From Chiloscyllium plagiosum (taxonomy: Eukaryota), in NCBI RefSeq assembly GCF_004010195.1, contig NC_057743.1, forward strand, positions 20,319,367 through 20,383,366: 64,000 bases of DNA, read 5' to 3'. Position numbers and translations under genes: made by a program. Below are positions 1,107-64,000 of the stretch, piece by piece; the first letter of the stretch is position 1; each line of letters begins with the position of its first letter. The notes below the pieces were generated by a model. The model searched no databases and was not told the origin of the DNA. It worked only from the letters and a program-made list of their open reading frames with translations.

Positions 1107-1330
1107 ATTAGAGTGGTACTGGAAAAGCACAGCAGGTCAGGCAGCATCCGAGGAGCAGGAAAATTGACGTTTCGGGCAAAGGCCCTTCATTAGGACCAGT
1201 CCTGATGAAGGGCCTTTGCCCAAAACGTCGACTTTCCTGCTCCTTGGATGCTGCCTGACCTGCTGTGCTTTTCCAGCACCACTCTAATCTAGAGCCTGAT
1301 TTCTAGCATCTGCAGTCCTCACTTTTGCCT
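1107..1330 (+). mobile_element. Palindromic non-coding PLE pLTR insertion with decayed hammerhead motifs
   Basis: Inverted arms about 1105-1194 and 1201-1290; 15-bp TSD AATGAA(A/T)AAGGAAAG at 1092-1106 and 1331-1345. Confidence 0.85.
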
Positions 1331-2019
1331 AATGAATAAGGAAAGTCTTACGTTGTCTTGTTCTGTAATGTAAGCCTAAAGTTCAATATATGGACTGCTT
1401 GCTTAGAACTTCAACTCTTGGGTTGAGTTTTGCTAGCTTATTGATAAATTTCTTTATTCTGCCCAGTAGCTAATGTCCAGATCAACTACAGCAAGCCTCT
1501 CTTCACAAACCACATTTATATCTTCATGAGTTTCAGTAATATTCACAAAGAATGTCACTGTTTGCCATTTGAAACAAACCCACTCTTATTTCACTAGAAA
1601 CCTACAAGATAACTTTTCTCTGTATAAAGATATGAGGAAAACATGAACATTTTGGACTTTTCCTTGATATTAATTACGTAAAAGATTTGTATGTTTATTA
1701 AAGCAACCAGGAAATTATTCACTACTCCCCCACTTATGTATTTGCAAGGCAAAGAATAACAACTTTCTTACATCATTTGCTCATAAACAAATATAGTTTA
1801 CTGTATTCAAGAACTGCTTACAATATTTTATTAGTCTGACGTACAGTTTTTTTCTCATGTACTTCAGTTTTATTTATTACTAAAAGCTTTGAAACAAACA
1901 GTTGTACATGTAAACAGATCTATATATTGTTACCAGAAACCAGCCAAAAGAATTCAGTTCTTCCAGACTTCTTTTTATGATAAATTTTCAGTTAGTGAAT
2001 CAAGCCAATTTTATAATAT

Positions 2020-2235
2020 AAAACAAAAATACTGAGGATGTTGGAAATCTGAAATAAAAACAAAAATTGCTTAAGAAATTCAGGTGTGGCATCATCTGCG
2101 AAGGGAAAGCAAGGCTAACGGTTCGAACTGAAGGGTCACTGGACTTCATCATAGAATCCCTTCAAATGTTAACTCTGCTTTCGCTCCACATATGCTGCCA
2201 TACCTGGTGAATTTCTCCAGCAATTTCTGTTTCAA
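2020..2235. mobile_element. Older palindromic PLE-pLTR remnant (same family at about 13533-13740 and 60915-61125)
   Basis: Degenerate inverted arms (AATTGCT..CAG..TGGCAGCATCTG versus TGCTGCCA..CTG..TTTCTCCAGCAATT) around GGGTCACTGGAC. Confidence 0.6.
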
Positions 2236-3472
2236 TTTCATAATGTACATGGAGCAATTTGATTCAGCTTCTCACTGTTCAATAATTATTTTTAAGGCAT
2301 GGAGTTGTGAATTGAAAAAATATAAAAATGGAATTACCGTACAGAACTCCAATGTGATTTGTCTTAATTTCTAAAGTACTAATTGCCCATTTTTGATTTG
2401 AGGTTTGTTTTTAAAATACATGATTAATGATTTTTATCCTTGCTTGATCATTGATATCAGACCAGCACATTCAATTGTTACTTATTGCTGGTTGATAAAT
2501 TTGACATTATAATCAATTCGATGGAAATAACTCATAGTAAAAATCTTGTGCATGTCAATGCACTTTCCTATCTACATTAACCTAATTCCTGCCGCACTTT
2601 GGTGATTTGACACACAATATTTGACTAATTCAGTCACTGCTAAACAGTGACACTAAAAATTTAATTCCATTAAATCAAATTAAGAAACACAAAAGTCCTG
2701 TTAATATATTTTTGATTATTTGCAGCAATTCAACAAATTGCTTACGGTGGGCTGGATGATACATTGTTTCAGATATGCAGGCGTTTTATACTATACAATA
2801 CACAGATATTACAACAAACTTTTTATAAATTGGCACCAGGAGAGTGCCAGTTGATCAAATGTCCCAGATAATCGAGAGGTCCACACAATTAATGTTAAAA
2901 ACACACACTAAGTAACAGAAACGTATTGCAATGTGAAGTCACAACACTGTTATATTTTATTTACAGCATAAATCACCTTGATAATAACACAACTTTGCCT
3001 CAAAGCAAAGAGCCTTCTGACTCACATCCTCAACTGACTACTTGAACATTGCAGAGATTGTGGTATTTGAACATCTGACTCAAAATTGAATCAACTGTCA
3101 ATATTTCATGTGACCATTCAACTGAACAAGTATTTTTTATTTTTTCACTGAGGTAAATAAATTTTAAAAGTTATAATAATTGGATGGAATAATATAGTAA
3201 ACTTTGCAATACTTGAGGTTATTATTTTTGCCTTTAAAATCATTAAATCTCATTTTAAAGTTGACAATGTCTCTAATTCATTGCCTCATTGTTATCTGAT
3301 GAAAGGCCTTCGTTAGTTGAAATTTGTTGTAATTCAAACGCCATCTGAGCCAACTGTTACTAGCATTTGCAAATATAACAAGTTCCAAACATTTCCATTA
3401 ATTTAACATATTTCTGGAGTATGTCAGTATGTTGGAGGATGCTTACATTCTGTTATTAGACAAAGAGCCCAC

Positions 3473-4779: not shown

Positions 4780-4935
4780 GGTCAGGTGAATTGGCCATAC
4801 TAAATTGCCTGTAGTGTTAGGTAAGGGGTAAATGTAGGGGTATGGGTGGGTTTCGCTTCGGCGGGTCGGTGTGGACTTGTTGGGCCGAAGGGCCTGTTTC
4901 CACACTGTAATCTAATCTAATCTAATCTAATCTAA
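4780..4935 (+). mobile_element. 5'-truncated HE1-type V-SINE with (TCTAA)n tail
   Basis: Near identical to the 3' half of the copy at 30856-31165. Confidence 0.85.
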
Positions 4936-7389: not shown

Positions 7390-9485
7390 AACTGTGCTGC
7401 CTTCCATTGTTAAAGATGACTAGACTAGTTTTAGGTAAAAACAAGGACTGCAGATGCTGGAAACCAGATTCTAGATTAGAGTGGTGCTGGAAAAGCACAG
7501 CAGTTCAGGCAGCATTCAAGGAGCAGGAAAATCAACATTTCGGGCAAAAGCCCTTCATCAGGAATGAAGGGCTTTTGCCCAAAACGTCGATTTTCCTGCT
7601 CCTCGGATGCTGCCTGAACTGCTAGACTAGTTTTATAAAAGGCTATAGATTCTCCAATAATGTCAGGAGGTTATTGAATAAGATTCAAGCGTATTCACAG
7701 CAGTCGGTTCAAAGACTAGTGATCTCCTTGGATGCAGAAAAGGCATTTGATTGGGTCAAGTGGCCATATCTTTTTATACCCTTGAACAATTTGGTTTAGG
7801 GGAGGTTTTTATTAGGTGAGAAAGGGTCCTCTGTAGAGATCCTCTGGTGGTGGTCCTCACCATTGGTGAGAGAACTAGTAATTTTAATATCTGTAGGGGC
7901 AGTTGGCAAGGCTGTCCCCTCTCACCACTACTTTTTATATTGGCTATTGAGCCACTGGCAGAGGCTATCTGCAGGGAACCTAATACAGCAGCCCAGGAAG
8001 TAGGATAAAAATCGCATAAGATCACATCATATGCGGATGGTATTCTTGTCATTTTGTCGAAGCCAATGATTTTGGTGCTTGTATTGTGTCATCATAGTCT
8101 TACCAGACTATAGTGCTGCTCCCTCATTAGAGAGAAGCGACTGGTGGTGATTTAAGTTGAGGGCCACCAAGAGAGGTAACCCATGCTGTTGGCATCACAC
8201 TGCTTTGCAAACAGACAACCAAGCCAACTGTTTAACACAACTTATCAATTCAATTGGTTCCTTTTCAGGTTATAAGATTAATTTCTCAAAATTGGAGGCT
8301 ATGCCTATAGGTCTTAGAATATCTGACGTGGAAGGTGAATCACAGTTTGGGGGGGGGGGGGGTGTTCTTTATTTAGCATCTTTGTTACTCCTGCCTTTGA
8401 TCAATTGTTTAAGGCCAATTTTGGCCATTTGCTTGACAGGATTAAGCAAGATCATCAGCGATAGGCCAAGTAACTCTTAATATTGTCGTAATCCTATAAT
8501 TATCAGTACTGTGGCAGCTAGGAGAATCTCCTGCTTGGGTGATTTATTTGAAGGTGAAATAATGATGTCCTTTGACCAAATAACCTGCAAGTATGGTCTA
8601 GCGAGCAGAGACCTTTTTCATTTTTTTTAGGTCAGGGATTTTATTCAAAAAGTGACCATGCTTTTGACCGACTCCTACGGATCCGTCACAGAGAAGAGGG
8701 TGCTTCATGCTAAAAGTACTCTCTCTGTTAGTACTCTTTATCATATGTTGGAGGGTGATCTTTCCGAATCATTACGGACCTTCATTACGTCCCAAGTGTA
8801 AATTAAGTATTGGTACTCTCACTCATTGTCTATGGTCTTGCCGCAGGCTCCGTACATATTGGAATGCTGTGGCAGGAGTAATAAAGAGCATTTTGAGAAT
8901 CGAAGTTAAGACGGACCCTAACTTTCTTCTCCTGGGCCTACCCAATTTATTTTATTTAGCCGCTCATGGAAAAGAACTTTTTAATATTCTCACTTTTTGT
9001 GCAAGGAAAAATATTTTGATGTATTCAGTCTCTGAAAAACCCCCGGGTTTGTTTGATTGGCTTAGGCTAATCATGGAACATATTCCTTTGGACGTTCTTA
9101 CAAATATGTTACACCAAAAAACTGAAAATCTTTGTAAGATATGGTGACCCTTTTTGCACTATCTAGATATAGAATTATCTAACATCTTATTTGGACTTTT
9201 GTGTAGCCATGACGATCTGATTTATTGAACTTGATGCCCTTGAAGGAAGAATTTTGAATAAATTCATGTGTAATATCAATGCTCTCGGAGGTTGGGAGCT
9301 ACTGTTTCATTGTGCTAAGCTAGTTTATTTATTTGTTGCCTTTACTGATCTGTTCATCTTGCACAAGAGTATAGTTGTGTTTTGATTGTTTTTTTATTAT
9401 TTATATAGTATTTTTGTTGGTTCATTGTTGTTAAAATTTTGTAATTTTATAAAAAAATTTATCTTTCAATAAAAATATCTTTTTA
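7390..9485 (+). mobile_element. Decayed L1-clade LINE inserted into a CR1 3' fragment
   Basis: ISLDAEKAFDWV, QGCPLSPLLF and a C-terminal knuckle PKC..GTLTHCLWSC; AATAAA and A-rich end; degenerate 14-bp TSD at 7376-7389 and 9486-9499; CR1 halves at about 7130-7389 and 9500-9718. Confidence 0.8.
7434..7621 (-). mobile_element. Palindromic PLE pLTR insertion with hammerhead core, nested in L1
   Basis: Same family as 1107-1330; perfect 14-bp TSD CTAGACTAGTTTTA at 7420-7433 and 7622-7635. Confidence 0.88.
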
Positions 9486-9719: not shown

Positions 9720-11460
9720 TAGTAGAGTATACTCAAGCGAGAAATCAGGAGGGTTAAAAGAGCACAAGAGATAGCTTTGATAGATAGAATTAAGGAGAAT
9801 CCAAAGAGATTCTATAAATACATGAAAGGCAAAAGAATAACTCGGGAGAGAATAGGGTCCCTTTACAATCAGTAAGGCCATCTTTATGTGGAACTGCAAG
9901 AGATGGGTGAGATGCTAAACAAGTATTTTGCATCAGAATTTAATGTGGAGAAGGATTTGGAAACTGCAGAACTTGGAGAAATAAATAGATATCTTGAAAT
10001 ACATATACAGAGGAGGATGTACTAGACATTTTAAAACTCATAATAATGGATAAATTCCAGGACCTGATCAGGTGTATCCCAGAACTTTGTGGGAAGCTAG
10101 GGAAGTGTTTGCTGGGCCCTTTGCTGAGGTATCTGTATCATCAATAGCCACATGTGAGGTGCCGGAAGACTGGAGAGTGGTTAATGTGGTGCCATTATTT
10201 AAAAAAGGTGGCAAGGAAAAGCCAGGGAATTATAGACCGGTTAGCCTGACATCAGTGGTGGGTAAATTGTCAAAGGTGATTCGGAGGGACAGGATTTATA
10301 TGTATTTGGAAAGGCAAGGACAGATTAGGGATAGTCAGCATGGCTTTGTGTGTCGGAAATATTAACTCACTAACTAGATTGAGCTTTTTGAAGAAGTGTC
10401 AAAGAAGACTAATGAAGGCAGAGGAGTGGATGTGTGTGTCTGGACTTCAGTAAGGCATTCGACAAAGTTCTGCATGGCAGACTGGTTACCATAGTTATAT
10501 CACATGGAATCCAGGGAGAACTAGTCATTTGGATACAAAATTCGTTTGAAGGTAGGAGACAGAGGATGGTGGTGGAGAGTAGTTTTTCAGACTGCAGGGC
10601 TGTGATCAGTGTTATGCCACAAGGGTTGGTGCTGGGTCCACTGCGTTTTGTTGGTAAGTCAGTACTAAGTTCATTGGTAAGGTTGGAGATGACACCAATA
10701 GTGGTGTGGTGGACAGGGAAGAAGGTGTTTTCCCTGGAGTGTTGGAATCTGAGGGGTAACTTTATAGAGGTTTATAAGTTTATAAACTCATGAGGGGCAT
10801 GGACAGGGTGAATAGTCAAAGTCTTTTTCTCAGGATAGGGGGAGTCCAAAGCTAGAGGGCATAGGTTTACAGTGAGAGTGAAAAGATTTAAAAGGGACTG
10901 AAGGGGCAACTTTTTCATGCAGAGGGTGATGTGTGTATCGAATGAGATGACAGTGCAAGTGGTGAAGACTGCTTCAATTACAACATTTAAAAGGCATCTG
11001 GATAGGTATGTGAATAGGAAGGTTTAGACAGATATGAGCCAATTTCTGGCAAATGGGACTAGATTAGGGTGGCATGGTGGCTCAGTGGTTAGCACTGCTG
11101 CCTTACAGCACCAGGGACCCGGGTTCAATTCTAGCCTCAGGCGACTATCTGTGTGGAGTTTGCACATTCTCCCCGTGCCTGCGCGGGTTTCCTCCGGGTG
11201 CTCCGGTCTCCTCCCACAGTCCAAAGATGTGCAGGTCAGGTGAATTGACCATGCTAAATTGCCCATAGTGTCAGGTGCATTAATCAGAGGGAAATGGGTC
11301 TGGGTGGGTTACTCTTCGGAGGGTCGGTGTGGACTGGTTGGACCAAAAGGCCTGTTTAAACACTGTAGGGAGTCTAATCAGATTAATTTAGGATATCTGT
11401 TCACAAGGACGAGCTGGACCAAAAGATCTGTTTCTGCGCTGTAGATATCTATGACTCTAT
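9720..11460 (+). mobile_element. Decayed CR1 LINE (ORF2 with internal deletion), SINE inserted in its tail
   Basis: [50 protein letters not shown]; tail ATGACTCTAT. Confidence 0.88.
11068..11380 (+). mobile_element. Full-length HE1-type V-SINE
   Basis: tRNA-like head (TGGCTCAGTGG, GGTTCAATTC), V-domain TGTGTGGAGTTTGCACATTCTCCCCGTG, CR1-like 3' end; AGATTA on both sides. Confidence 0.9.
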
Positions 11461-12433
11461 AAACAGCGAGCAGCAGAAACAATAAGGAGTTAAGTTAGTG
11501 TACTTCCCAATCATTTCAACACTTCTTGATATTCTCTTTACCAATATGGGAAGTTAGCAACGTAAAGTATATCAACTTCCAAGGTATGATCCTCCAGTTG
11601 ATGAAACTGCTAAAGATCTGACTAGACCTTTCCATTGGTTTTCATGAGAAAAACTGGTTTATTTAAAATATCATTTCACTTAAAATTATGTTCTTGAAAA
11701 GTACAACATTAACTTAGAACTTACCACATTTCTTATGTTTAAGGAGGTCTTGTACTGCAATGTCCCTACCTCAGCCAGAAACTTTGGGTCAAGCCTCACC
11801 CCAATACTCGAGGATCAAGTGCAGTCATAACACAGTCTATCAACCTGCAAATCGTTCCATCACATGCCAATGGCAGATCCTAAGAGCAAGAGAGGCTTCT
11901 GGTCAATCATGTGATGGAAAGACAGCTGTAGCCTCTAACAGCACCATCCCTAGCTCTGTACTACAACATGCATGATGCAAGCTGCCACAGAACTTCAACC
12001 TCCCAGAGTGAAGTGTAACACACCATTACCATGTGTTTACATACTTTGAATTCTGTTCAAAGCCATATACAGCCCAGAGTTCAATCTACTCTATTGTAGA
12101 TAGCTGGATTATTGAATAATATTAAATCTTGGGGAGGTCGTGGGGGGTGGGGTTGGAATTGTTATATAGCATGCAGATGTGTATTGATTTGTTTGTGAAT
12201 GTACCCGGAATCAGAGATGCAACCAAATAGAAGTATCCCTAGTGACAATCAGATGCGGAGCTTCATATCATAGTATGTATGGGTGTGATTATATACAGAA
12301 TTACACGTATACACTCATAGAATGGATATCAATTGTAAAAAAATGTTAGATGCTACTATGTATATTCTGGAGTAGATGTAATATCCGGGTGTGGTGGTGT
12401 ACTTAAGCCTGTACATGTCCCTCATTCTCTCAC

Positions 12434-12571
12434 CTGGCTCTCAGCCGCAGGGATACTGCTCTCCATTTCACAGAGAGCCCGAAAAGTCTCCAACTGCATG
12501 CCGCCATTCACCTGCAGGGTGAAGGTGATCTCGCTCAAATCGCGCCGGACGCAGTAAACGGTGAGCAACAT
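12434..12571 (-). CDS. DDI2: DDI2 (DNA damage-inducible 1 homolog 2, UBL plus retroviral-like aspartyl protease) coding exon 1
   Basis: ATG at 12571 in a GTCGCCATG context; translates [46 protein letters not shown], matching the vertebrate DDI2 N-terminus; 138 nt, ends CAG|GTGAGA, phase 0; CpG-rich surroundings. Confidence 0.95.
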
Positions 12572-12840
12572 GGCGACAACCGGCTGCCGAGCACCGAAAC
12601 ACGGACACAGGGACACAACTGGCCCGGGGAACCAGCACCAAAAGCCAGGCGCTCGATCGCCGACTAGACCGAGGCCCAATCGCCCAAAGCAGAAATTCCA
12701 CCAAACACTCCACACACACACACCAACTCCGCGCTGTACAATCCACCTAACCGCACTGCCGCAAACCGGCCCCGCCACTGTCGCAAAGCGAGCCGCACAG
12801 CAAGTGTACATGTCGCTGTCTCTCTGCCATCTTGATGAGG
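12440..12840 (-). promoter_or_regulatory. CpG-rich DDI2 promoter/5' region with GC box and YY1-like motif
   Basis: CpG enrichment against an AT-rich background; GGCCCCGCC near 12769-12777; GCCATCTTG (CAAGATGGC on -) at 12826-12834. Confidence 0.6.
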
Positions 12841-13987
12841 AAATGAATTCATTACCTTTTACCTACTACCCCCAATCCTTATAAGGTATTCACTGTGTAA
12901 TAACTACCACAATGCATTAGTCCAGGTCCACTGATGATGGCTTTAGGAAAATGCATCTTCTCTTTTAGAAATTAGCCCACATTCCAAAACATAAATTAGT
13001 TTCGAATTTTTGGGTGGACAGAATTCTGTTTTCTTGACATCTTTTAAAATCACTAATAGAAGACTATGACATATCTATTTCATGATAATGTTGTTTTGCT
13101 GAAGGACATGTTCGTCAGAAAGCAAAATGAAACAGCAGTAAGAGACCACAGCATCAACTGTTAATTTTAAATGAAATTATCATCAATGTTCATCCTTGTA
13201 ACATGCTTACATGATCCTGACTTATTAGTTTGTTTGGGATAAGTCCTAGTAATTACAATTTTCATGCATCAGCATTTGATATTTTTGAAAGTTACATCAA
13301 AATGAAAATCATGTTGTGCAGCAAAACATTAAAAGCAGAGTTTCATGCTCGATTCTCATCAGAGTCCTCAGCCAAGATGACAAGAAGCTATTTGATTGGT
13401 CTCAGCATCTCAAGGGAGAAGACAGGCAAGAAGAAGCCTAGATAGGATGATGTTTTCTTCAGCACTGATAAAACAGCCAGATGACACATCATCCGGCAGA
13501 CATTTGACAAATGGTCATACGGATGAAGTATGAAACAAAACAGAAGTGGTTGGAAAAGCTCAGCAGGTCTGGCCGCACCTGTGAACAGAAATCAGAATTA
13601 ATGTTTCGGGTTAGGGGAAGGGTCACCTGACCTGAAAAGTTAACTGATTTCTCAGGTGTGCCAAACCTGCTGAGCTTTTCCTGCAATTTGATTTCATTTC
13701 TGATTTACAATATCCACAATTCTTTTGATTTTTATTCAGGTGAAGCATGAAGTTTGCACTCAAGCAAAAGTGTGTACATAATAGTTACCATACACCTTTT
13801 TCTACCCAAAAGCTAATTTTGGCATATGATAGACTCCATATTTACCAATAATGGAACACATTTTGCCAGATACCATGAGTCTACACTGAGGATAAGTGAG
13901 ACGAAATTTATACAACTGAACTTGACCACACAATATATTGGGAGCTACAAAAAATTGAAACCACAATAAAAAAAAGGAATGTTACAC

Positions 13988-14644: not shown

Positions 14645-29869
<15,225 letters not shown>

Positions 29870-29884
29870 GTCCAACACCACACA

Positions 29885-30855: not shown

Positions 30856-31165
30856 CATGTGGCACAGTGGTTAGCACTGCTGCCTCACAGCGCCAGAGAC
30901 CCGGGTTCAATTCCCGACTCAGGTGACTGACTGTGTGGAGTTTGCACATTCTCCCCGTGTCTGCGTGGGTTTCCTCCGGATGCTCCGGTTTCCTCCCACA
31001 GTCCAAAGATGTGCAGGTCAGGTGAATTGGCCATGCTAAATTGCCCATAGTGTTAGGTAAAGGGGTAAATGTAGGGGAATGGGTGGGTTGTGCTTCGGCG
31101 GGTCGGTGTGGACTTGTTGGGCCGAAGGGCCTGTTTCCACACTGTAAGTAATCTAATCTAATCTA
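30856..31165 (+). mobile_element. Full-length HE1-type V-SINE
   Basis: tRNA-like head, V-domain and (CTAAT)n tail; high identity to the other copies in the window. Confidence 0.9.
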
Positions 31166-31924: not shown

Positions 31925-32162
31925 NNNNNNNNNNNNNNNNNNNNNNNNNNNNNNNNNNNNNNNNNNNNNNNNNNNNNNNNNNNNNNNNNNNNNNNNNNNN
32001 NNNNNNNNNNNNNNNNNNNNNNNNNNNNNNNNNNNNNNNNNNNNNNNNNNNNNNNNNNNNNNNNNNNNNNNNNNNNNNNNNNNNNNNNNNNNNNNNNNNN
32101 NNNNNNNNNNNNNNNNNNNNNNNNNNNNNNNNNNNNNNNNNNNNNNNNNNNNNNNNNNNNNN
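31925..32162. other. Assembly gap (238 N)
   Basis: Run of N between the two inverted PLE arms. Confidence 1.
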
Positions 32163-32164
32163 NC

Positions 32165-46700: not shown

Positions 46701-49700
46701 AACACATCATCAGAGTACAGAGTTATTGCCCTGTATCTGTTGCATCATCTCCTGATGAAGGAGCGGTGCTCCGAAAGCTAGTGCTTCCAATTAAACCTGT
46801 TGGACTATAATCTGATGTTGTGTAATTTTTAACCTTGTACACCCCAGTCCAACACCAGCATCTCCAAATAATGTCTCCTGTCACTGATATACATCAATGT
46901 GGCTTCTGTCAATGAGAAAGCATATTTAAAATAGTAAAATTCAGTGTTTACGTGTGTGTTGATTTCAAAAAGTGTTCAATTTAACTGGTTGTGATTTTTA
47001 ACCACCAAATACCAGTTTGTCCATCATTTACATTTATAGTCAATTTAAATCACAAGTACATTGTTCAATTTTTACATTTAACATGAGCGTCCATCCATTC
47101 AGTTTACTTCATCTAACCATATCAACACATAAGTTAGCTCGCTGAGCTTGAATGTTTGCTTTCAGACATTTCAGCACCATACTAGGTAACATCATCAGTA
47201 AAAGTCACCCACCTTAAGAAACCAAGGCCAATCAATAGAGAGGCAGGATATACCACCAGCGCTTCATCGGAGACTCTCACTGATGATGTTCCTAGTATGG
47301 AGACGAAACATCTGAAAACAAACCATCAAGTTCAGCGAGTTAACTTACATACTTATCATCAACCTGAGCTACAAATCTTCTTAAAAATTGCATATTGACA
47401 CATCGTTGTAATCCTTCTTGCAGCACAGACTAATCTAATTTCCTGTTAATATATCTATTCTGTTTGCCTCAACCATGATGTTCTCATCAGTCATTCTTTC
47501 TGAGGAAAGAAATTTCTTTTTAATTTATTTGTCCCTCTCTTATAATTATGGTCCCTAGTTTAGATGCCACAAATGCTCTGCATAAATGGAAACATATTTG
47601 TCATCACCATCCTACTGAACCCCATTTACCTCATTCATCTTTTCTCGATTTATGCTCTTTAATTATCATAATTTACAGCTTCTGTGAATCTTCATGTCTC
47701 CTTTACCTACATCTAGATTTATAAAATGGACGCTGACCCTTGTGGCTTATGTTTGATCATCAACAATGTGGATTTCTTTCCAAGTAGTGGTTTGACATGT
47801 CGCTCAGGTTCTGACATCGATTGTGAAAATGTTGAAAATCTCTTTAAGAAGTTACGGTTTGAGGTTATTGTTAAAAGAAATCTGACCAAGCACGTAAGTA
47901 TTTCCAAGAACACTAATTATAACCTCTGATAATTCATTACAGGTTGTGTACAATGTTTCTGTAGAATGCAGCACAGACTTGTCTCAAATACTTCGCAAAG
48001 GTACCCACTGCATGGAACCTGTAGCTTCAGAAACAAGCAAGAGTGTTCCAAAGAGCCAGAAATAAGGAACTATTGAATTTTCTCGAAGTATGATTTTCTC
48101 CAATCTAATGACACAGTTTTCTAGATAACCATATGAATTCATCAAGAGATTTGCATAATGTCTTTGCATAATTTTCCTTGGAACTAACTTCAACCACACC
48201 AATTTAAGAATTATCAAAATGTCTACTGTAAGAATTTAGCAGTCATCTTCATTTTGCAAGGTAAACCTTTGCGAGAATCTCCTGCATAATTGGAGCACAA
48301 GAACAGGAGTAGGTCATTTGGCCCCTCAAATCTGTTCTACCCAATCAATAAGATCATGGCTAATTTTCAACCATATACTTGCCTTTGGCCATATTCTTCA
48401 GTATCTGTTTAAGATAAAAATCAGTCTCAGATTTAAGATTAATAGTTATGTAACTGGCATCAATTGTCATTTGCAGAAGAGTTCCATACTAACACCGGCT
48501 TTTGAAGTGTTTCCTCATTTCATTCCTGAAATGTTGACACTAAACACCCTAGTCCTGATCTGCCCAATCAGTAGCTGGAGTTGAATGTAGCAGAAGATTT
48601 GATGACTTTATCCGTATCAGAAACTGTATATTATACAAACATTTAAAGAGACCTCCTGCCCACGTTTTCTTTCTCCTCTGACTCCCAGCCACCTTTCACT
48701 TGCTCTGGTAACATTGAACAACACCCTATTGTAGTGATTGTAACAAGGTCAGCCAGGTGAACAGCATAGAACATGAGTTCCCGATTGGGACTGTTAATCT
48801 GATCCAATCAGAGAACCCTGGCTGATAGATAAGAACAAGATGTCGAACATCCTGTACACTCTGAGAGCTGGCTCTGCAGGAGGTAGGTCAATGTCAAGAA
48901 CTCGCCATGTGTAAATAAAGGGTGAGTTGGTGAAAGGATATCAGCCTATGGGGAGTCATTTTATTCATGTCTTAGTTATGATATATGTTGGATAATGGTG
49001 TTTCCTCACTCTATTGTGTGATTTTCTCCAACAGGTGATGGTAAAAGAGCTGCAAAGTCTAGCTCTCAAGGACCATACAGCTTTTGACAGTTGCGTTGTT
49101 GTTATTCTTTCACATGGTAGTCAGGTGAGTCAAGTAACTTAAGCAATAAACGCAGCAGCTGCAATGCATAATTTAACCTGGTGGGTCAGTAATATTTAAC
49201 ATTAAAGGTATAGTTTTCTTGTTCTTTCTGTCTGTTTTGTTTTATTTTTCTTCTGTCACATAGCAACTTTTTTTTCTACATTATCTGCCCTATGTTTCCA
49301 GTTGTGTTCCTGCTGAATCTTAGTTGGAATCATTACTCTTCCATAATAGAAATAACCATTGTAAATGTACAAATGTTACTACTGTCTGTGGTGTGCTGCC
49401 CTTAGGTGGATTTTCCAAGTTTATAGACATTCTTTGAGCACCTATACTCATGAAGTGTTGAGTTTCCCAAAAAACATGTCGGTCCCGTTCCTGTAGTATT
49501 GCTGCAAAAATTGTTCAATGGCTTTAACCATTTGAAAAGTCATTTTGAAAAACTGAAACAAATACAAGAAATGCTGAAAATACACAGGGTGATAGGGAAT
49601 AGGTGAGAAATCTGTGTGAGCAACAGATTGGAAGGAAGCTGTTTAATCTACAGAGATTTTAAACAAAATAATGCTGCTTTTCTGCTGTGTTTTACATGAT

Positions 49701-52700
49701 GGTGATCAAGGCTTAGCCAAGTAAGCCTTAGGAAAAAAAAGCTGCAAGGATTTAAAAGATGCTTTCAGCTGTTGGCATTCGTTTGAAGCTCCATGACAGT
49801 CCTTGTTGTCTTGGAATTTACAACCATAAAATCTTGCCAGGCAACCTCAATATAACTCCACTACAGAGGAAAATCTCTAGAGGAGATGATGTCATTGAGA
49901 GTCCTGGTGAGGAAAAAAGGCTTGATGTTCAGTGATGGGGTCATGGTCCACGGGGTGATAGGAAGTGTTTAAGAGACAACCACAAAATGTTTTAGACAAA
50001 CATAAGTTGTTAAATTATAATCAATGAGTTTACATGAAAATATCACTAAACTTTTTTCCTTCTATAATGTACAATGAGTTTATTACAATCCCATGCACCA
50101 ACATTTTTATTGTAAAACATTCTATGCTTTGAACATGTGAATGTAAAGTAATTATTTTGGAACAACATGCTGCTTTTTGCCTATTTGTAAATTTCTGCTG
50201 AGTTGATGAGAGAATGAAGAAGACCTTTGACCAAGTCATAAATTTTAGCTTAATGTGATACAATGTAATCTGATGTCAGTTCTCCATGGTAGTACATCCC
50301 TATGTATTTTTGTTAAGGAGCTGGTTTAAGCTTCATTGTCACTTTACTCAATAAATATTATATGGTACAGCATGCTTTCAAACAGGAAAATCACACACAC
50401 TAACAGATGAGACGGGGAAATGAACGTTCATAGTATGTGACAAATCCCTTCAATTGGTGTGTGAAGAGTGACTACACCTGAACACAATCTCTTTGCCACA
50501 GCATAGTTTGGATACAGAATAAACTGTTTTCCATCTTGTACCTTCCAATAATGTACCTCAGTTCCATCCTCAGAATGCATATGCTACTACAACACTGATA
50601 TTCTACATTTCTCATATCAAACTCCCTTATCTGCTCTCTAAGCAAAGTGAGTTACAGTAGTTATCAGACAGAAGATTTTCATTCCATCATATTACCAAAC
50701 AGAAGTCAGTATAAAACAAGTATTTGTAAGCTAAACCTTTTGCAGTAATTAATGTTAGCTAGGGATAGGTGTACACTGTGTGCAACTACATTCACAACAT
50801 TTCCTGTATGTAAATGCATTCTACGGTATTATGTTGAATTCTATACATGTGTTTCTCTCCTCAGGCTCAGCATAGACAATTTCCTGGTGCAATTTTTGGA
50901 GTGGATGGGGGCCAATCTCTGCCAGTACAGCATATTGTTAGTTACTTTGATGGTTCACACTGCCCAACTTTGCGGGAAAAGCCCAAATTATTCTTCATTC
51001 AGGCCTGTGGTGGTGGTAGGTGCTATATTTGTTGCTGACTTATGTAAATAAAGATGTGTAAGTTAGATCTATTGGCTGTGCTAAAATACCCATAGTGTTC
51101 AGGGATGTGTAGGTTAGGTGCATTAGACATAGGAAATGCAGGGTTGTAGGGATAGAGTAGAGGGAATGGGTCTAGGTGGGATGCTTTTTGGAGAGTTGAT
51201 GTGGACCTTTTGCGCAAAAAGGCCTGTTTCCAAGCTGTGGGGATTCTACTAAATATATAAATAGATCAGCTGCTAGAAATATTAAAAAATGTAAATGTAG
51301 CTACTATTGGGGTCCAGTGACTATATTCAAGAATTAATTTAAATACCCGGCTAAATAACTGTTACCAGAATCTTTCTACCTTGTGCCTGATCTCTGGCGG
51401 GCACTATTTATTGCACAGTTTGAATGGATTAGTACTTTAACTCAACGCTAGAAACAGTGGTCTGATCAATGTTAAAATAATTACTAGCAAGAGACTCCAG
51501 GATAATGGTTATGTTGCTAATCCAGTTAGTAATCTAGTGGCCTTGAATAATAATTAAAACCTACAGGGAAATTTCAGAATTCAAATTCAGTTTTAAAACA
51601 GGCTTTGGAGATGAAGGTATCAATAAATATGACCATGAAGCTTTCAGATTGTCCCAAAAAACAACTGCTTACTTTTCAGAAGCAAGTCTGCCATCTTTCT
51701 CCTGTCTGGCCTATATGTATTTGAAACACAATTGTTAACTGGTGGAGAAAAGTACTCCATTTATCAAATCACTGCAAAGAATAACAAAAGAAAAACTCAG
51801 CTGCAATCAAAACAATTCAAGGGCAGTAGAGATGAGCAATAACTGCTGGCTCAGCCAGCAATGCTCACATCGCATGGATGAATAAATAAAACATTTTTAA
51901 AAGACAGGATTCAAGAAAGGTACACTCAGCCCAGTTAACTCATCAAAGTCATCCTCACTAACATCTGGTCAGAGGTTGGAAATTCTGAGGGGAGTAACTC
52001 ACCTTTTGACTCTCCAAAACCTGTCCACAAGCATTGTGATGAAATATTCTCCATCTGCTTGGATGAATGCAGCTCCACCAACACTTAAGAAGCTCAAAAC
52101 TATTCAGAACAAGCATACTTAAATGGCACCCTATCCATCAGTTTAAAAATGAACTTCTTTCACCAGCAAAGAATATTGGCACCACGTAGACCATCTACAA
52201 TGCATTGCCGCGATTTAATAAAGTACCTTTGTAAGCACCCTCCAAAGTCATGATCTCTAATACTAGAAGGGTAAGGAAAGCAGATGCATGGAACATTACC
52301 ACCTGCAAGTTCCCCTTCAAGCCATCACCATCTTAATTGGAACTGTTGTAATTTCTTCTTTGTCACTGGGTCAAAATCCTAGAACTCCCGAACAGCATCA
52401 TGGGCATACATAACTCCCATGGACTCAGCAATTCAAGAAGGCTACATCTTCTCGAGGGAAATCAGAGATTGCAAATAAATGCTGTAGTCTCCCTGTAGAA
52501 TTTTTAAAAATGTATGATGACATGTTGCTCATCTTTTCCAAGGCCCATGACAATTTATGACTTTACAAAGCTCTTGATGCAGTTCCAATATTAGTTACTT
52601 TGTGGATTAATTGGATGAGTGTTCCCCTCTTGGATCTAAGCACCTGCTTTTTATTCTTATCAATAAGTCTTTCACACTGCAAGCATGCTGAGAGCAGAAA

Positions 52701-55700
52701 AAAAAGCACAAGAACTGAACAATTAAAACCCCGTCTTGTCTCCATATTTGATTTATTCTGTGTTGTGTGCATTCAAGGGAAAAAAAAAGTTTTTGTTTTT
52801 AGCATTTGATTTACCATTTACTTTTTTCCACAGGAACACAGAAATTCAAGACAGGAGAAACCTAACACACCTGTGTTAGTGGTAGCTGTTCAACTGAGTT
52901 CTCTCTACTCTGACCCCATTGTTCTTGCCTTTTCCTACATTTTTTTTAATATTCTTCAAATATTTATTCAATAGTCTTTGGAATTCTTTATTGCTCTGTA
53001 TTTCCAGCCAATTTAGGCATCTACTGTCTTATTGTTTCTTTTCTTACGTGCTTTTTCTCAAACTGTTTTTTTATTGGTTTCACTTGCCTTGTGAAAGACA
53101 CTGTATTGCTTGAAAAGTGTGATCAATACAGCACCATAAGAGACCATAGCTGGAGAGAAAGGACAAAAGAAAGCACAAGTGGAATAGACCAGTAATATGA
53201 CCAGAATGATTCTGCAGAGAGGGGATCACCTTTGTACACTATCACAGAGCACTCAGGTCATCTGAAAGACAAATAAGTTGAGTTTGTACTTTTGTAGCAT
53301 CACAGTGGAATGTTTGTTTCTTACAGATTTGAAGGATAAAGGATTCAAGACAGCCGAGGAGGTGGCTAGCATTCCTACTATACTCTTTGATTCTGTTAGC
53401 TTGCAGACTGATGCAACTCCATGTCCAGCAGAAGATGAACCAGATGCAGTATCCAGCTTACCAACTCCCAGTGATATTTTGGTTTCATATTCTACTTTCC
53501 CAGGTACCTTCATCTGCCCCAGTTACTGCCTTTCAAGCAGAGTGATTTGATCCAAAGTGAATGTCAGCACTGTTGCATTTAGATTAGATTAGATTCCCTA
53601 CAGTGTGGAAACAGGCCCTTCAGCCCAACAAGTCCACACCGACCCTCCGAAGAGCAACCCAGCCAGACCCATTCCCCTACATTTACCCCTGACTAATGTA
53701 CCTAACACCACGGGCAATTTAGCATGACCAACTCACCTAACGTGCACATCTTTGGACTGTGGGAGGAAACCAGAGCACCTGGAGGAAACCTGTGCAGACA
53801 CTGGGAGAACATGCAAACTCCACACAGATAGTTGCCTGAGGCAGGAATTGAACCCAGGTCCCTGGAGCTGTGAGGCAGCAATGCTAACCACTGAGCCACC
53901 GTGCCACCCAGCTCAAGCAGATAGTATTAATCAGTTTAGAACATTTTTCTTGATTAATCTCAATTCCCATCTGGTGATTTTCATGCCTATAAAAATTGCG
54001 AATATTATTGCTTGAAAATGAAGTATTTCCATTTCTGGCAGTGCTGGGACCACTGTTGTTCACTATTTACATTTATGGAACTGCTCTTCAAATTGTTTAT
54101 GAAAATATTGAACGGCAGTGGTCCCAGCAAAGATCCCTGTAGAACATCAGTTCCCACCTTCTGCCAATTTGAATAACTTGTATTCCTGCTGGTAATTCTT
54201 AAAGTAAAATGCTCTTTCCTGATCATTAGCAGATAATGTAACTCAAGGGTTGTAAATATATTTAAATCTATTATTTTTCCTTATCTTATTATGCATGTTC
54301 TTTAGTTGCAATACTGTATATTGTATTCATAACATGTATATTATTGAACTTGTTGAGAAATTGTTTGAAATTGTTGAGACTCTGGGGAACAGCAGTGGAT
54401 GTCCTAGCAATGGCTGCATCCAGCCATTGGCCTGTACTGAATCAGTTTTTGATATGCAGTCATGCTTTGAGTTACTCAGTGACAATATTCTGGCCTGTAA
54501 TTAGTTTAACAGAATATTTGGGCTGCATAAACAAATTACTGACTAGATTTTATTTCTCTCATTCTGACAAGCAACAAAGGGTTATTCAGATGTTTACACA
54601 CTTTTTTCTTTAGGGTATGTGTCATGGCGAGATAAAAAGGATGGATCTTGGTACATGAAAACACTGGTGAATATATTCAGTAAATATGCTCATTCAGATG
54701 ATCTACAAACACTTCTAACGAGGGTGAGTTGTTTTATTTTATTCTGAGTATAATACCATTCGTTGAGACTCTGGATTTGATTTCAATACACTAAACCTTG
54801 GCACAGGTTCTGATGATTCCAATATTTTTCTGTCCATCCTACATCCTCCACTCTGCATAAACATGCTCAACCAGAATTCTACACACTACTAAACACACAT
54901 TGAATCCCATTCACCATTAGTCCTGGGCATGTTGACCTTGCTCTCAGTTCAACAATGCCGTAATCTTAAATTCCTCAGCTTTGCCCTTTAAATTCTCTGT
55001 AACTCATTAACACTCAACAATGGAACCCCCCAGGGTTGCATACTCAGCCCCCTACTGTACTCACTGTTTACCCATGACTCTGTCGCCAAATACCAGACTA
55101 ATGCCATTTACAAGTTCGCTGATGACACCACCATAGTCGATGGAATCACACATGGCAACAAAACAGACTACAGACAGGAAGTGGAAGACCTGAAAGAATG
55201 GTACACTGAGAACAACCTAGCTCTCAATGCCAGCAAAACCAAGGAACTCATTATTGACTTTTGGCGGGATGTTACTAATGCCCCCCCTAAACATTAACAG
55301 CACAGAGTGGAGAGTGTCAAGCTCCTGGGAATGGTCATCCACAACAAGCTTTCTTGGACGCACTGGTAACAAAGGCCCAACAATGTCTCTTCTTCCTCAG
55401 GCAGCTGAAAAAATGTAGCATGACAGTGAATACCCTTGCCAAATTTTATAGGTGCACCATCAAGAGCATTCTGTCTGCATGTATCACTAACTGGTATGCC
55501 AATTGTACCATTTAAGATCGGAGACGGTTACAGACAGTGGTGAGCTCTGCCCAGACAATCACAAAGACCAACCTCCCATCTATAGAATCCATCTACCAGG
55601 CCTGCTGTCAAGGAAAGGCTGCCAGCATTCTCAAAGATCCATCCCATCCTGGCAATATTTTTCTACAATCTCTACCATGGGGGAGGAGGTACAGAAGCCT

Positions 55701-58889: not shown

Positions 58890-59762
58890 GGAGTTAGAGT
58901 TATATCGCACGGAAACAGACACAGGCAATCTGTGTGATTGACTGGTTGGGATTTTTTGGGAGAGAGTAGTTATGACCTTCATGTTTTGCCAAGCATCTCA
59001 GCTGGGCCCGCAGGGGCAGACCTGACCTCCCAGTTACCACTCATTTTAATTCCCCTTTCCATTCACTTTCCAACCTTACCACTGTTTGCCACCTCCATTG
59101 CCACAGTGATCAGACCGCAAATTATATAAATAAATCTACTGGCATTTGGCTCATATTCCTCTAAACCTTTCCTATTCATATACCCACCCAGATGCCTTTT
59201 AAATGTTGTACCAGCCTCCACCATTTCCTCCGTCAACCCATTCCATATATGCACCACCCTCTGTGAAAAAGATGCCCCCTTAGTCCCTTTCAAATCTTTC
59301 CCCTCTCACCTTAAACCTATGCCCTCTAGTTTTGGACTCCCCCACCCCAGGAAAAAGACCCTATCCATGCCCCTCATAATTTTATAAACTTCTATAAGGT
59401 TAGCTCTCAGCCTCCAATGCTCCAGGGAAAATAGTTTCAACCTCTCCCTATAGCTCAAACCCTCCAAACTTGGCAACATTCTTGTAAAACTTTTCTGAAC
59501 CCTTGCAAGTTTCACAACATCCTTCCTATAGTGGGAAGATCAGAACTAAATGCAGTATTCCAAAAGTGGCCTAACCAATTTCCTGTAGAACCACAACATA
59601 ATCTCCCTGCCCCCCCCCCCCCCCCCCCCATACTTAATGCAATAAAGGCAAGCATACCAAATGCCTTCTTCACTATCCTATCTACCTGCGATTCCACTTT
59701 CAAGAAATTATGAACCTGCCCTCTTTGTTCAGGAACACTCCCTAGGAACTTATCATTAAATA
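58890..59762 (-). mobile_element. CR1 3' fragment with a foreign insert in its tail
   Basis: [43 protein letters not shown]; tail end at about 58890-58920. Confidence 0.85.
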
Positions 59763-60039
59763 ATGCTGAGAGAAATTCTACTTAGAGGGAGAACTTGAGT
59801 TTTGGTCTTCGTAGAATCAATCCCCATCCTAAGCCAGAAATCTGTGGCTTCAAGTCACACCTCGTCAGTTGATGATGTTGAATATAAAGACATCAGGGGC
59901 ATAGGGATACAGCAGGAAATATTTTGAAAGTGGAATTAAGCAATCTGTATGATTGACTGGTTAGGAATTTTTGGGAGAGAGTAGTTATGACCTTCATGTT
60001 TTGCCAAGCATCTCAGCTGGGCCCGCAGGGGCCTTCATG

Positions 60040-60526
60040 TTTTGCCAAGCATCTCAGCTGGGCCCGCAGGGGCAGACCTGACCTCCCAGTTACCACTCAT
60101 TTTAATTCCCCTTCCCATTCACTTTCCAACCTGACCACTTTTTGCCACCTCCATTGCCACAGTGATCAGACCGCAAATTATAGGAACAACACCTCATCTT
60201 CCGCCTGGGCAGCCTACAGCCTGAAGGACTGAGCACTGAGTTCTCCAATTTCAAATAACCTCTCTTTCCATCCCCTGACTCCCTTTTCAGCCTCTCTCTT
60301 CCATTCCTCTGATCAACCCTTCCAGCTATCAACAGATTAATTCCTCCCATCGACTAACCAGGTCATATCCTCTACCTGTGTTCACCTATCCCTCCCTCAC
60401 CCCCACCCCAGCCATCTCCAGCTCCCCTTAACCACCACCAGTCCCGAAGAAGGGTTACACCTGAAATGTTGTCTTCTCTACCTCCTAGCTTGCTGTGTTC
60501 TCTTAGCCTACTGCTTGTCTACCTTG
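60040..60526 (+). mobile_element. PLE 3' fragment (GIY-YIG C-terminus plus pLTR with variant hammerhead at 60441-60473)
   Basis: LPVTTHFNSPSHS..EQHLIFRLGSLQPEGL; CCGAAGA-AGGGT-TAC-ACCT-GAAA-TGTT. Confidence 0.75.
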
Positions 60527-62492
60527 ACCTTGACTGAGGCAAAGGTTGAATAAGTAAGAAGGTATTTTTATCCCTGTCATGCATTGTTCTTTCTCAGCAG
60601 ATTTTTTTTCCATTCTTTCATGGGATGTGAGCATCGCTGATAGTGCCAGTATTTGCTACTCATCTCTGATTGCTCTCAAAAAGATGTTGGTGCACCTTTT
60701 AAAAATCCATTTTTAATAGCTACACTCCATCTGAACTGCATGCACTACATGGTGAACATTGCTTTTGGGGCCTGGTTGATGCCAGGTGTTCCATCCAATT
60801 ATATTCTTATTTAACGTTTTTGCAATGGATTACAAATGAGTGGCTTTCTGCAGTGAAGAGTCAACCAAATTGCTATGGATCTGGAATCACACAAGACCTG
60901 GTAAAGGTGTCAGATTTGAAAGTGGAAATTGCCGGAGAAGCTCAGCAGTTTTGGCAGCATCTGTGGAGAGAAAGCAGAATTAACATTTCTGGTCCAGTGA
61001 CCCTTTTTCAGGGGCTAACCCTGAAGTTTCTCTTCACAGATGTTGCCAGACATGCTGAGTTTCTCCAGCAATTTCTGTTTTTCTTTCAGATTTCCAGCAT
61101 CCACATTTTTTTTTGTTTTATTTTAAAGATGACAGATTTCCTTCCTTCAAGGATGATAGCAAACCAGATGGGTTTTTATGATAGTTTTATGATCAATATT
61201 ACTGAGACTAGCTTTTAATTCTAGAATTATTTATTAAATTTAAATGCTGTCTGCAATCATGGAGGGATCTTACCCCATTGTGTTCCCTACTAGCTTGAGT
61301 CTCTAGATTACTAGTTCAGTAACATTTTCACTCTTACTGTCCTGTTCCAGAGGCCAGTCTGATTGACAGATCAGGTGACCCCTCTACATGGAGAACACAT
61401 CAAAGGAGGCTACAGCACAGGAACAGCAAGGGAACCTGCGCATTGGATATGGATAACATCACAGTGGGAAGTTGGGATAATATGTGTCAATGGAGCAGAA
61501 ATGAAGGAGCAGGTCAGCAATCCTGGGATATGGTGGGAGCTGAAATTAAGAAGGGGACAGGGATACATAATCTGAAAAAAGGGAAGCTGTTTTGCTTTGT
61601 GGACATAAGAGAAGCATCTTTGCTCATATTCAACTTCAAATGTTTCTGGAAAGGCAGGAAAACTGGACTAAACCTAGAAAACAGTTCATTTGTGAGACAA
61701 GCAACCTTATTTTGTCCTGAAAGTGAGCTGATTGTCCAATCCAATTCCCTGCATGTTGCCCTGGGAGAAATGAAAATCGATATGTTTGAAGTGGATTGAG
61801 TTCAGATTTGGCACTTTAAAAAATCCTCTGTGTTCAGAGGGTTAAAAATCTCCATATTGTGTCAGGCAGGATTTGAGCTTGGGGCCTCAAAGCTGATTGA
61901 TTCTAATGTTGAGTTACAGGAAGTTGCTGTTTACCCAGAACTAAATACAGGTATTGAACAAAAGTTTGACAGTGCAGAGGCTGTTGGTTTGAGACAAAGG
62001 ATGGAGAGATAGAGTCATTAATGTGTAGGAACTGACTTTGAAACTTTGGATACTCTCGTATTGAGTACAGTTATAAAAACTAAAAGACCCTGTATATTTT
62101 TAATGTAACTATCTTGCCTCCTAATCCCAAAACAGCTACAATTTCCTTCATTTTTGAACTGAGAGAAATGTGTGTCAGGGAACACTGACTAAAAATCAAG
62201 GCTATCTTAGCCTCCCCTGCTGCGAAACCAATGTATTCTTAAAACAGAATATGCTGGTTTCACATGATGGTATGCTGATAGTCAGCATTTTCTGGGAGAT
62301 GTAAGTTCAAGAAACAGAATTCCTATCTTGTAAATGCAGACATTGGAATCGTTTCCAAAAAGACCTAGATAGCATTTGCACTGAGGATAGAGGGAAAATG
62401 GATCATAATGGAGGAGGGCTAAAGGGAATAGTGTAGGAGCTGAGTGGGATAAGCTGGGAACATTTGTTAGAATTGGGAATGGAAGAAGATTA

Positions 62493-62949
62493 GGAGAAAG
62501 TGAGGACTGCAGATGCTGGAGACCAGAGTTGAAAAGTGTGGTGCTGGAAAAGTGCAGCAGGCCAGGCACCATCCGAGGAGCAGGAGAATTGACGTTTCGG
62601 GCATAAGCCCTTCTTCAGGAATGAGGCTGGTGTGCCAAGCAGGCTGAGATAAAAGGTAAGGGGCGTGGAATGCGATAGGTGGAAGGAGGTGAGGGTGAGG
62701 GTGATAGGCCGGAGAGGGGGTGGGGGGGTGGAGAGGTCGGGAAGAAGATTGCAGGTCAAGAGGGTGGTGCTGAATCCGGGGATTGGGACTGAGATAAGCT
62801 GGGGCGTGGGGAAATGAGGAGAGGGAGGAGGAGAGCTTCTTCAAGGTAGGCATTCTTGCAAGACGATTCGCAGTAGGTTAAGATCAACTAGGAGAAAGTG
62901 AGGTCTGCAGATGCTGGAGACCAGAGTTGAAAAGTGTGGTGCTGGAAAA
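62493..62949 (-). mobile_element. Non-autonomous PLE derivative: 398-nt unit plus partial tandem repeat
   Basis: About 60-nt direct repeat at 62491 and 62889; 12-bp TSD GGAAGAAGATTA at 62481-62492 and 62950-62961; hammerhead at 62587-62622. Confidence 0.85.
62587..62622 (-). ncRNA. Minimal hammerhead ribozyme motif
   Basis: Reverse complement: ATTC-CTGAAGA-A-GGGC-TTAT-GCCC-GAAA-CG-TC-AATT; core intact, stem I weak. Confidence 0.65.
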
Positions 62950-62985
62950 GGAAGAAGATTACCAATATTAACCATAGTGGGGCAG

Positions 62986-64000
62986 CAAGGTTTGTGAAGG
63001 TTTGTAACTCAGGTTGAGGTTTAGGGTGTAGGTTTGCTCGCTGAGCTATAGGTTTGATATCCAGACGTTTCATTACTTGGCTAGGTAACATCATCAGTGG
63101 CGACCTCCAAGTGAAGCGAAACTGTTGTCTTCTGCTTTCTATTTATATGTTTGTCCTGGATGGGGTTCCTGGGGTTTGTGGTGATGTCATTTCCTGTTCT
63201 TTTTCTGAGGTTGATAAATGGTATCTAGATCTATGTGTTTGTTTATGGCGTTGTGGTTGGAGTGTACTGGGTCTTTTAAGTTTGTTAGTTTTTGTTTGAG
63301 AGTGTTGGTGGGTTTGTGTGCTACTAGGATTCCGAGGGGTCTTAGTAGTCTGGCTGTCATTTCTGAAACTTCTTTGATGTATGGTAAGTTGGTTAGTGTT
63401 TCTGGCTGTGTTTGGTCTGCTTGTCATGGTTTGTTCTTGAGGAATGTGCACACTGTATTTTTTGAGTAATACGTTGTATTACCTTCACAAACCTTGCTGC
63501 CCCACTATAGTTAATATTGGTAATCTTCTTCCTTTTCCAGCACCATACTTTTCAACTCTGGTCTCCAGCATCTGCAGACCTCTGCTTTCCGAAGTTCGTC
63601 TGTGCTGTAGTGTGTGGCGGCTCATTGGAATAGTGTTCCGATACAGCTTCGTTTGTGTGTGTTGGGATGGTTGCTGGTGTAGTTAAGTATTTGGTCAGTG
63701 TTTGTCGGTTTTCTGTATACGCTGGTTTGTAGTTCTCCGTTGTCCTTTCTTTCGACTGTGACATCCAGGAATGCAAGTTTGTTGTCGGTTTCTTTCTCCT
63801 TGGTGAACTTTATGCCTGTGAAGGTGTTGTTGATGATGTTAAATGTCTCTTCTGTCTTGTTTCGTTTTGTAATGACAAAGGTGTCATCTACGTAGCGGAC
63901 TCAAATTTTTGGTTTGATGGTTGGTAGGGCTGTTTGTTCTAGTCTTTCCATTACCGCTTCTGCTATGAATCCTGGTAGCGGAGATCCCATGGGTGTGCTG
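62986..64000 (-). mobile_element. PLE of the same family as 40360-42976, running off the right edge
   Basis: [38 protein letters not shown]; internal deletion of GIY-YIG; pLTR with hammerhead. Confidence 0.9.
63061..63100 (-). ncRNA. Minimal hammerhead ribozyme motif (intact core)
   Basis: Reverse complement: CCA-CTGATGA-T-GTTACCT-AGCC-AAGTAAT-GAAA-CG-TC-TGG. Confidence 0.75.

Follow-up and report, generated by a model that had tools for sequence, protein, structure and literature searches.

The stretch analysed here, 64,000 nucleotides of the Chiloscyllium plagiosum genome (assembly GCF_004010195.1, contig NC_057743.1, positions 20,319,367 to 20,383,366 of the forward strand; hereafter the window), carries a dense set of minimal hammerhead ribozyme motifs. 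In our reading, to which we assign a rough probability of 0.75, these motifs are the terminal-repeat hammerheads of five families of Penelope-like elements (PLEs), most of them decayed, and the short copies of the Neptune-type families are likely reverse transcripts of the capped, uncut first 90–130 bases of the element RNA. A first-pass annotation had listed 16 copies of minimal type I hammerheads from PLE terminal repeats (pLTRs) of at least four families. This assignment was confirmed, with five families found: all 16 sites are PLE ends, either Neptune-type (families A and D) or Poseidon-type (families B, C, and E). Every site holds a recognisable hammerhead-bearing repeat end, but these are not 16 intact motifs. 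The catalytic core is kept at 9 of the 16 sites, the palindromic stem III also at six, and a stem I of at least two pairs also at four; moreover, the 16 sites represent about 11 insertions, five of which are inverted pairs. The 9/6/4 matches were obtained with a structural descriptor (CTGANGA, 0–1 extra base, stem II with four or more pairs, GAAA-NN-T-H), which in 200 dinucleotide shuffles gave means of 0.17/0.05/0.005 (maxima 2/1/1). The number of hammerheads in the window is far above chance.

Each family is tied to coding sequence for a reverse transcriptase (RT) and/or a GIY-YIG endonuclease (EN). In family A (stem II GGGC/GCCC) the motif lies directly downstream of a 649-aa RT-CxxC-GIY-YIG frame (locus L221), whose domains scored narrowly under the Pfam cut-offs (RVT_1, E 2.5e-6; GIY-YIG, E 3e-4). 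In family D (stem II GGAGC/GCTCC, stem III AGCU) a CxxC linker and endonuclease are located 900 nt upstream of the motif at one locus (L162). Families B, C, and E have a linker-less endonuclease directly upstream, in family C together with an RT (L212, L215). One open reading frame (ORF) that combines RT and C-terminal GIY-YIG domain precedes the motif at L221, L212, L215, and L216; for B, D, and E the endonuclease alone was found. The Neptune-type CxxC linker between RT and EN is present at L016 and L221 (A) and at the one family D locus, and the Poseidon-type frames L214 and L216 have no zinc-finger linker. Insertion units of EN+ PLEs (Craig et al. 2021, PMC8557442) likewise show the CxxC linker in Neptune only, together with 5′ truncation, an adjacent inverted copy, and a 30–40-bp tail, all shared with the copies studied here; unlike in that work, the clades (Neptune versus Penelope/Poseidon) were set here by linker and sequence likeness and not by a tree. 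The closest named relatives of one retroelement protein are carpet-shark proteins (71–82% identity). Pfam detected only LINE-type (long interspersed nuclear element) RT in the long window frames, PLE frames scoring poorly, and a PDB sequence search with one Poseidon frame returned nothing. Partial pLTR tandems and one internally deleted copy were seen.

To quantify the motifs genome-wide, exact matches to the family patterns were counted in the 3.56-Gb genome, yielding 97,647 for A, 18,117 for D, 12,125 for B, and 4,281 for C/E, in total 132,170, with 0 matches for reversed-pattern controls. The very large motif number suspected from the window is thereby borne out. The 40 largest contigs were sampled at fixed positions in 120 stretches of 10 kb each (1,173,458 called bases); in this sample the descriptor matched 100 times, 67 times with the palindrome, and 55 times with stem I too, compared with 2–9, 0–3, and 0–2 in ten shuffles of the sample. 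This corresponds to 47–57 motifs per Mb with core and palindrome, with and without stem I, and extrapolates to ~167,000 and ~203,000 in the genome, respectively. Homology detected 399 relics in the sample, one per 2.9 kb, which serve as a density figure only, 5′ ends being taken from a separate recount. The earlier density of one motif per 4 kb counts relics; core and palindrome together occur once per 17.5 kb, and with stem I once per 21 kb. Published per-genome hammerhead counts are ~4,000 in coelacanth and ~9,000 in Xenopus tropicalis (Cervera and de la Pena 2014, PMC4209133) and >6,000 in a coral, and retrozymes reach up to 120,000 copies in axolotl (PMC7229834; Li et al. 2026, bioRxiv 10.64898/2026.07.22.740005). 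The copy number found here exceeds all these compared figures (4,000–120,000). The motif and its host elements were already known; what is unusual is the number, and at least 132,000 intact-looking cores make statistics possible. No report of shark hammerheads was found in the literature, subscription papers and supplements excepted. PLE-associated hammerhead variants with reduced stem III and dimer cleavage were reportedly described by Lunse et al. in 2017, with ~150,000 over all databases, which may include sharks.

The extra base between A9 and G10.1 and the pair G10.1-C11.1 were present in 98 of the 100 sample matches. Stem I comprises 2–4 contiguous pairs depending on the family, and the loopless palindromic stem III (ACGU or AGCU) is found at six window sites and in 67 of the 100 sample matches, losses being mostly CpG transitions. 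The palindrome does not follow GAAA, as had been stated, but overlaps its last A (A15.1-C-G-U16.1). The proposed covariation is real within the Poseidon-type set, where stem I pair 3 (G-C/C-G/U-A) and stem II pair 3 (C-G/U-A) show compensatory changes; as these sequences are related, shuffle counts are not to be read as probabilities. In stem II, the columns that differ between Neptune and Poseidon types are not homologous. The motifs share with the metazoan PLE minimal hammerheads of PMC4209133 the CUGANGA/GAAA/UH core, the extra base 9-10.1, G10.1-C11.1, the palindromic 15.2-16.2, a short stem I, mostly solo copies, opposite-strand pairs 100–700 bp apart, and several families per genome, and all sequence-readable features listed in that paper are present; in contrast to them, the Neptune-type stem II here has only 4–5 bp. 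Among adjacent same-family copies within 2 kb, 50 of 88 pairs are head-to-head. Owing to the extra base, A9-U-G10.1 serves in families B and C as the ATG of a frame that is open through the tail. The extra nucleotide is a U in Poseidon-type copies, where it completes the start codon (33004, 36040, 42902, 63097), and an A in Neptune-type copies, whose ORF starts further down. An ORF start at hammerhead stem II, as in B, C, and E, is shared with the Anolis carolinensis Poseidon element PAc (Frangieh et al. 2024, PMC11167929).

Selection on the motif was analyzed with 65 copies bracketing the core, indels and CpG columns being left out. Singleton variants were as frequent in the core (15/676, 2.2%) as in the flanks (102/4115, 2.5%; p=0.79), while shared variants were depleted in the core (7/676, 1.0%, vs 459/4115, 11.2%; p=3e-23). 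The decay of CpG columns was 20% in the core and 17% in the flanks. The expectation of a core more conserved than its flanks thus holds between subfamilies and fails among copies. Since cores are conserved between subfamilies and singletons accumulate as in the flanks, selection appears to act on masters and not on copies, and the motif would be maintained in active masters and neutrally lost in copies. The raw contrast of core and flank (3.5% vs 7.5%) was rejected as a test for selection on copies, since differences between subfamilies raise the flank values. The motif is fragile owing to its CpGs at G12 and in ACGU.

Relative to C3, the 5′ ends of 164 young A copies were distributed as follows: 28 lay upstream of −20, one at −20 to −13, 53 at −12 to 0, 47 at +1 to +25, nine at the cleavage site ± 3, and 26 at +33 to +45. 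In family D, 19 of 45 ends fell at −12 to 0. The 3′ ends form two clusters ~35–40 nt apart. Long A copies have TTTTATC at −36 and TCATTCC with an initiator-like A at −4; long D copies have TATAAAT at −40 and an initiator-like A at −8, and the spacing from TATA-like box to initiator-like A is 31–32 nt. The tail adjoins the ORF start on its 5′ side (L251 matches residues 10–152 of a full-length relative), and only 184 exact copies continue from the tail into the ORF.

At position −5, the replacing base is a G in 3,444 of the 5,724 copies of subfamily A1 whose master base is replaced there. At the control positions, G was found in 818 of 6,146 such copies (13%; −4) and in 19 of the first 100 (−6), with ~26–29% expected from base composition. 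For family D, position −9 was predicted from the TATA spacing and two sample cases, and G was present there in 66 of the first 100 copies vs 25 at −10 (first-100 tallies were counted by eye). One hundred junctions were inspected, including L137/L138, L197/L198, and L199/L200, each of these pairs being either a duplicate or the two arms of a single insertion. G was found in 12 of 17 junctions whose base is accounted for neither by the target nor by the inverted arm, in 43 of 77 after dropping arm-explained cases and one long copy (control 1/11), in 15 of 26 after filler, in 20 of 40 direct insertions, and in 16 of 22 arm-explained cases; the control at −4 gave 1/20. In L1 insertions an extra G marks capped templates (PMC11702581). 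For PLEs, no report of a cap or strong-stop signature was found, subscription papers and supplements excepted.

These ends and junction bases suggest the following course of events. The pLTR promoter, with its TATA-like box and initiator-like A (−4 in A, −8 in D), would start a capped RNA whose first bases form the 5′ arm of stem I. The RT would prime internally in this leader, ~85–95 or 120–130 nt downstream, which would give the two tail ends as for the anole Poseidon in vitro, and would run off the cap, thereby adding a C. The short cDNA could then be joined directly, folded back, or re-extended to a mini-tandem. Under this mechanism the hammerhead would be selected only in active masters and would need homodimerisation or the element protein for cleavage, so that essentially no activity is predicted for solo and fold-back copies. 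Such leader copying fits the report of uncleaved RNA as the main substrate in PAc (PMC11167929), with which the copies studied here would share two RT start sites defining the tail and uncleaved RNA as main template, and with which they share the lack of reads ending at the cut site; in difference to PAc, the pile-up here is Neptune-type and not Poseidon-type, and leader-only copies at a capped start are not described in the available part of that paper. We give a slight preference to the more specific proposal that Neptune-type PLEs make strong-stop-like cDNA, the RT priming in the 5′ leader and copying the uncut hammerhead and cap, and that tens of thousands of such products were integrated.

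Several observations weigh against leader copying. The Poseidon-type 5′ ends show no pile-up (0/14 at −12 to 0), and the 47 of 164 A ends at +1 to +25 mean that other truncation routes operate. The TATA-like box of family A (TTTTATC) is a poor one, and the fly Penelope promoter is described as internal and TATA-less (PMC2377424). Subfamily A2 has a weaker excess of G (44 among the first 100 copies, which include 16 rows of AATT-centred fold-backs, and 4 of 13 direct insertions). The inverted arm alone explains 22 of the 100 junctions, and the Gs of D fold-backs are mostly arm-explained; microhomology accounts for part of the G signal. A full-length element with two pLTRs was not found in 20 endonuclease and 30 ORF-start targeted loci. 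Also, RNA reads showed no start or end pile-up at the motif in one poly(A) single-cell run of a repeat-bearing species, a library unsuited to 5′-end or cleavage tests.

In an alternative reading, the stubs would be ordinary 5′-truncated products of priming in the 3′ pLTR, with the RT dropping off or switching template at the hammerhead and the G arising via microhomology or terminal transferase. In these elements 5′ truncation and inverted copies are general (PMC8557442), microhomology occurs at many junctions, and some ends lie inside the motif. However, an RT on this route reaches the structure from the 3′ side, whereas the barrier lies at the 5′ edge (1 of 164 ends at −20 to −13), and in two families whose offsets differ the G is confined to a single position; we regard this explanation as unlikely. 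A uniform 90–130-bp unit, target duplications, and the very high copy number could instead indicate a separate non-autonomous family resembling short interspersed nuclear elements (SINEs), with its own short masters. This is quite improbable, as stub sequences agree with the pLTRs of coding copies at the level of subfamilies, the promoter-like signals are situated upstream of the stubs and hence missing from them, and a tRNA scan of the window found no tRNA gene. An origin of the copies from RNA that had cleaved itself or been circularised, which has been proposed for retrozymes, would agree with the rare head-to-tail mini-arrays; but 5′ ends are not enriched at the cleavage site (9/164), and the array junctions restart at −4 or upstream and not at position 1.1, which leaves this origin with hardly any credibility.

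The first-pass annotation had further inferred that the genome may hold a very large ribozyme reservoir, in which families sharing ACGT might cross-dimerise. We consider an active reservoir that cleaves host transcripts, with heterodimers between families sharing ACGU, very improbable; the inferences of a reservoir and of cross-dimers are mostly unsupported in view of the neutral decay of the copies and the rarity of same-strand partners. In the double hammerhead (Forster 1988, as described in PMC4209133) the 5′ arm pairs with the 3′ arm of the other motif; because the arms are exchanged, stem I is a hybrid. Cross-dimerisation via the shared palindrome leaves stem I out of account. Forced-duplex energies computed for the stem I arms proved small and noisy and were disregarded. 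Neptune A with Poseidon B, C, or E has no 2.1-1.1 pair and no contiguous stem I pair, and D mismatches the stem III of all other families with its AGCU. Only subfamilies of the same family, such as those of A, and combinations of B, C, and E (which retain 2 of 3 hybrid stem I pairs, or 3 for E × C counting G-U) are compatible. As a rule, we therefore propose that stem I and not the palindrome sets the dimer partners. A same-strand partner within 1 kb was found for only 4 of 67 sample motifs (2 pairs). In the window, the sole close same-strand pair with intact cores, 63097 (−, C) and 62618 (−, A), which are 479 nt apart, is predicted from its arms to be unable to close stem I, and the inverted pairs cannot dimerise; in fold-backs, a long hairpin buries the motif. 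In published work, solo motifs show no cleavage and dimers weak cleavage, the anole motif needs protein (PMC4209133, PMC11167929), and 1 of 9 Xenopus dimers cleaved (bioRxiv 10.64898/2026.07.22.740005).

The reservoir idea is favoured by the 132,170 exact motifs, by the density in the sample, by the stem I pairs retained among B, C, and E, and by the abundance of motif-bearing RNA in poly(A) reads from the same or a related species. In the single-cell run, motif and tail were deeply covered on both strands and the ORF only little, and 93–96% of these reads run on into unrelated sequence; this RNA reflects passive transcription inside host RNAs. Also, 12 of 30 loci with a tail running into the ORF are same-strand mini-tandems with motifs ~190–340 nt apart, and these are plausible active cases and dimer candidates. 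The mini-tandems (L237-L266; L045:2100-2700; window 62490-62950) have the order motif-tail-ORF start-motif-tail with retrozyme-sized units of ~190–340 nt, and the second copy often restarts at ATTC with G. The best candidate natural dimers include L045, with a distance of 334 nt, and L035, with 226 nt. Non-LTR retrozymes (PMC7229834; bioRxiv 10.64898/2026.07.22.740005) share with the present copies type I hammerheads in PLE-derived non-coding units, and the rare mini-tandems resemble retrozyme dimers. Retrozymes are, however, tandem arrays; here, no retrozyme-like tandem units with complete hammerheads were found in the window, and the bulk consists of solo or inverted minimal motifs. Altogether, the results argue against a host-relevant ribozyme pool.

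The individual copies in the window are in the following state, motifs being named by their C3 position where a single coordinate is given. Core, palindrome, and stem I are intact at 33004 (+), 36040 (−), 42902 (+), and 63097 (−). At 46752 (+) core and palindrome are intact and stem I is down to one pair; at 62618 (−) stem I is broken (G1.1>A). Three intact cores have lost the palindrome by CpG decay: 7561 (−, AUGU), 47198 (−, AUGU), and 47280 (+, ACAU). Seven sites are dead in the core, five by single changes (1193 (−), G5A; 1202 (+), G12A; 31500 (−), A13C; 37199 (+), G12A; 60444 (+), U4C) and two by 5′ truncation (7563 (+), without CUG and with an additional G12A; 42485 (+), without CUGA). 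G12A thus occurs three times. The Rfam scan of the window gave no match to a hammerhead model, and the tandem repeat scan nothing relevant.

Two fold-back insertions of family A are located at 1112–1325 (hammerheads 1166–1193, −, and 1202–1229, +, both dead), with a ~15-bp target duplication, and at 7436–7623 (7534–7561, −, core intact). Both fold as single hairpins of ~−117 to −180 kcal/mol with both motifs buried, the first at ~−178 kcal/mol. Family B forms an inverted pair of ends with GIY-YIG fragments at 31394–33078, consisting of the dead 31467–31500 (−) and the intact 33004–33037 (+; stem I GCA/UGC, cleavage triplet GUU), in which A9-U-G10.1 is the ATG of the element frame. A second inverted B pair at 35933–37272 holds the intact hammerhead 36007–36040 (−) and, in its + arm, thumb/GIY-YIG coding sequence (36331–37119) followed by the dead 37199–37232. 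A broken family C element spans 40393–42979, with an inverted RT part (−, ~40393–42259) and endonuclease plus pLTR (+, ~42229–42979). It contains a family A stub nested in the endonuclease (42484–42604, +) and the intact hammerhead 42902–42935 (+; stem I CCA/UGG, triplet GUC). Further copies are the solo D stub at 46747–46869 (+; core 46752–46780, AGCU), the E fold-back pair at 47130–47384 (47165–47198, −; 47280–47312, +), the old Neptune-like stub at 60443–60527 (+), the region 62490–62950 (−) with the A motif at 62618, and a C end with RT and endonuclease fragments at 62985–63998 (−; intact hammerhead 63064–63097). Beyond the 16 listed sites, six further decayed copies belong to older Neptune-like fold-backs at 2031–2230, 13532–13723, and 60927–61101. 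Near-identical pieces (97–98%) at 58925–59260 and 59940–60252, one inside a 41-bp duplication, weakly resemble the C-terminus of a Neptune endonuclease.

Host genes are also present. Exons 1 and 2 at 455–637 and ~12450–12600 (−), with a weak ubiquitin match and a CpG island at 12251–13000, belong to what we take to be a DDI2-like gene; both short fold-backs sit in its first intron and would form RNA hairpins of 60–100 bp. A complete OST48/DDOST gene (14650–29870, −; Pfam OST48_N, E 5e-8, at 24756–24983) contains no hammerhead-bearing relic in its 15 kb, with ~5 expected at the sample density. A CARD-domain exon (PF00619, E 1.5e-8) is located at 37417–37683 (+), 150 bp past a family B end; an intron of this gene may contain the intact motif at 33004 (+), in sense orientation. 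A weak match to the ribosomal protein S12 family (PF17487, E 0.001) at 50033–50275 (−) may stem from an exon or a retrocopy. Other repeats are a SINE-like family of ~310 bp and several LINE fragments, at 4780–4930, 11067–11379, 19716–19855, 30859–31166, and 53578–53909, with LINE RVT_1 domains at 43600–44130 and 54992–55294.

The junctions bear on the role of the PLE hammerhead and on PLE copying, and they point to uncut capped leaders as the template normally used. Leader copying would explain how genomes fill with solo hammerheads. If the strong-stop-like reading is true, the genome is a base-resolution record of the start site of the element, stem I of the ribozyme is built from the first 4–8 bases of the capped mRNA, and the leader tandems, a small class, could be nascent retrozymes.

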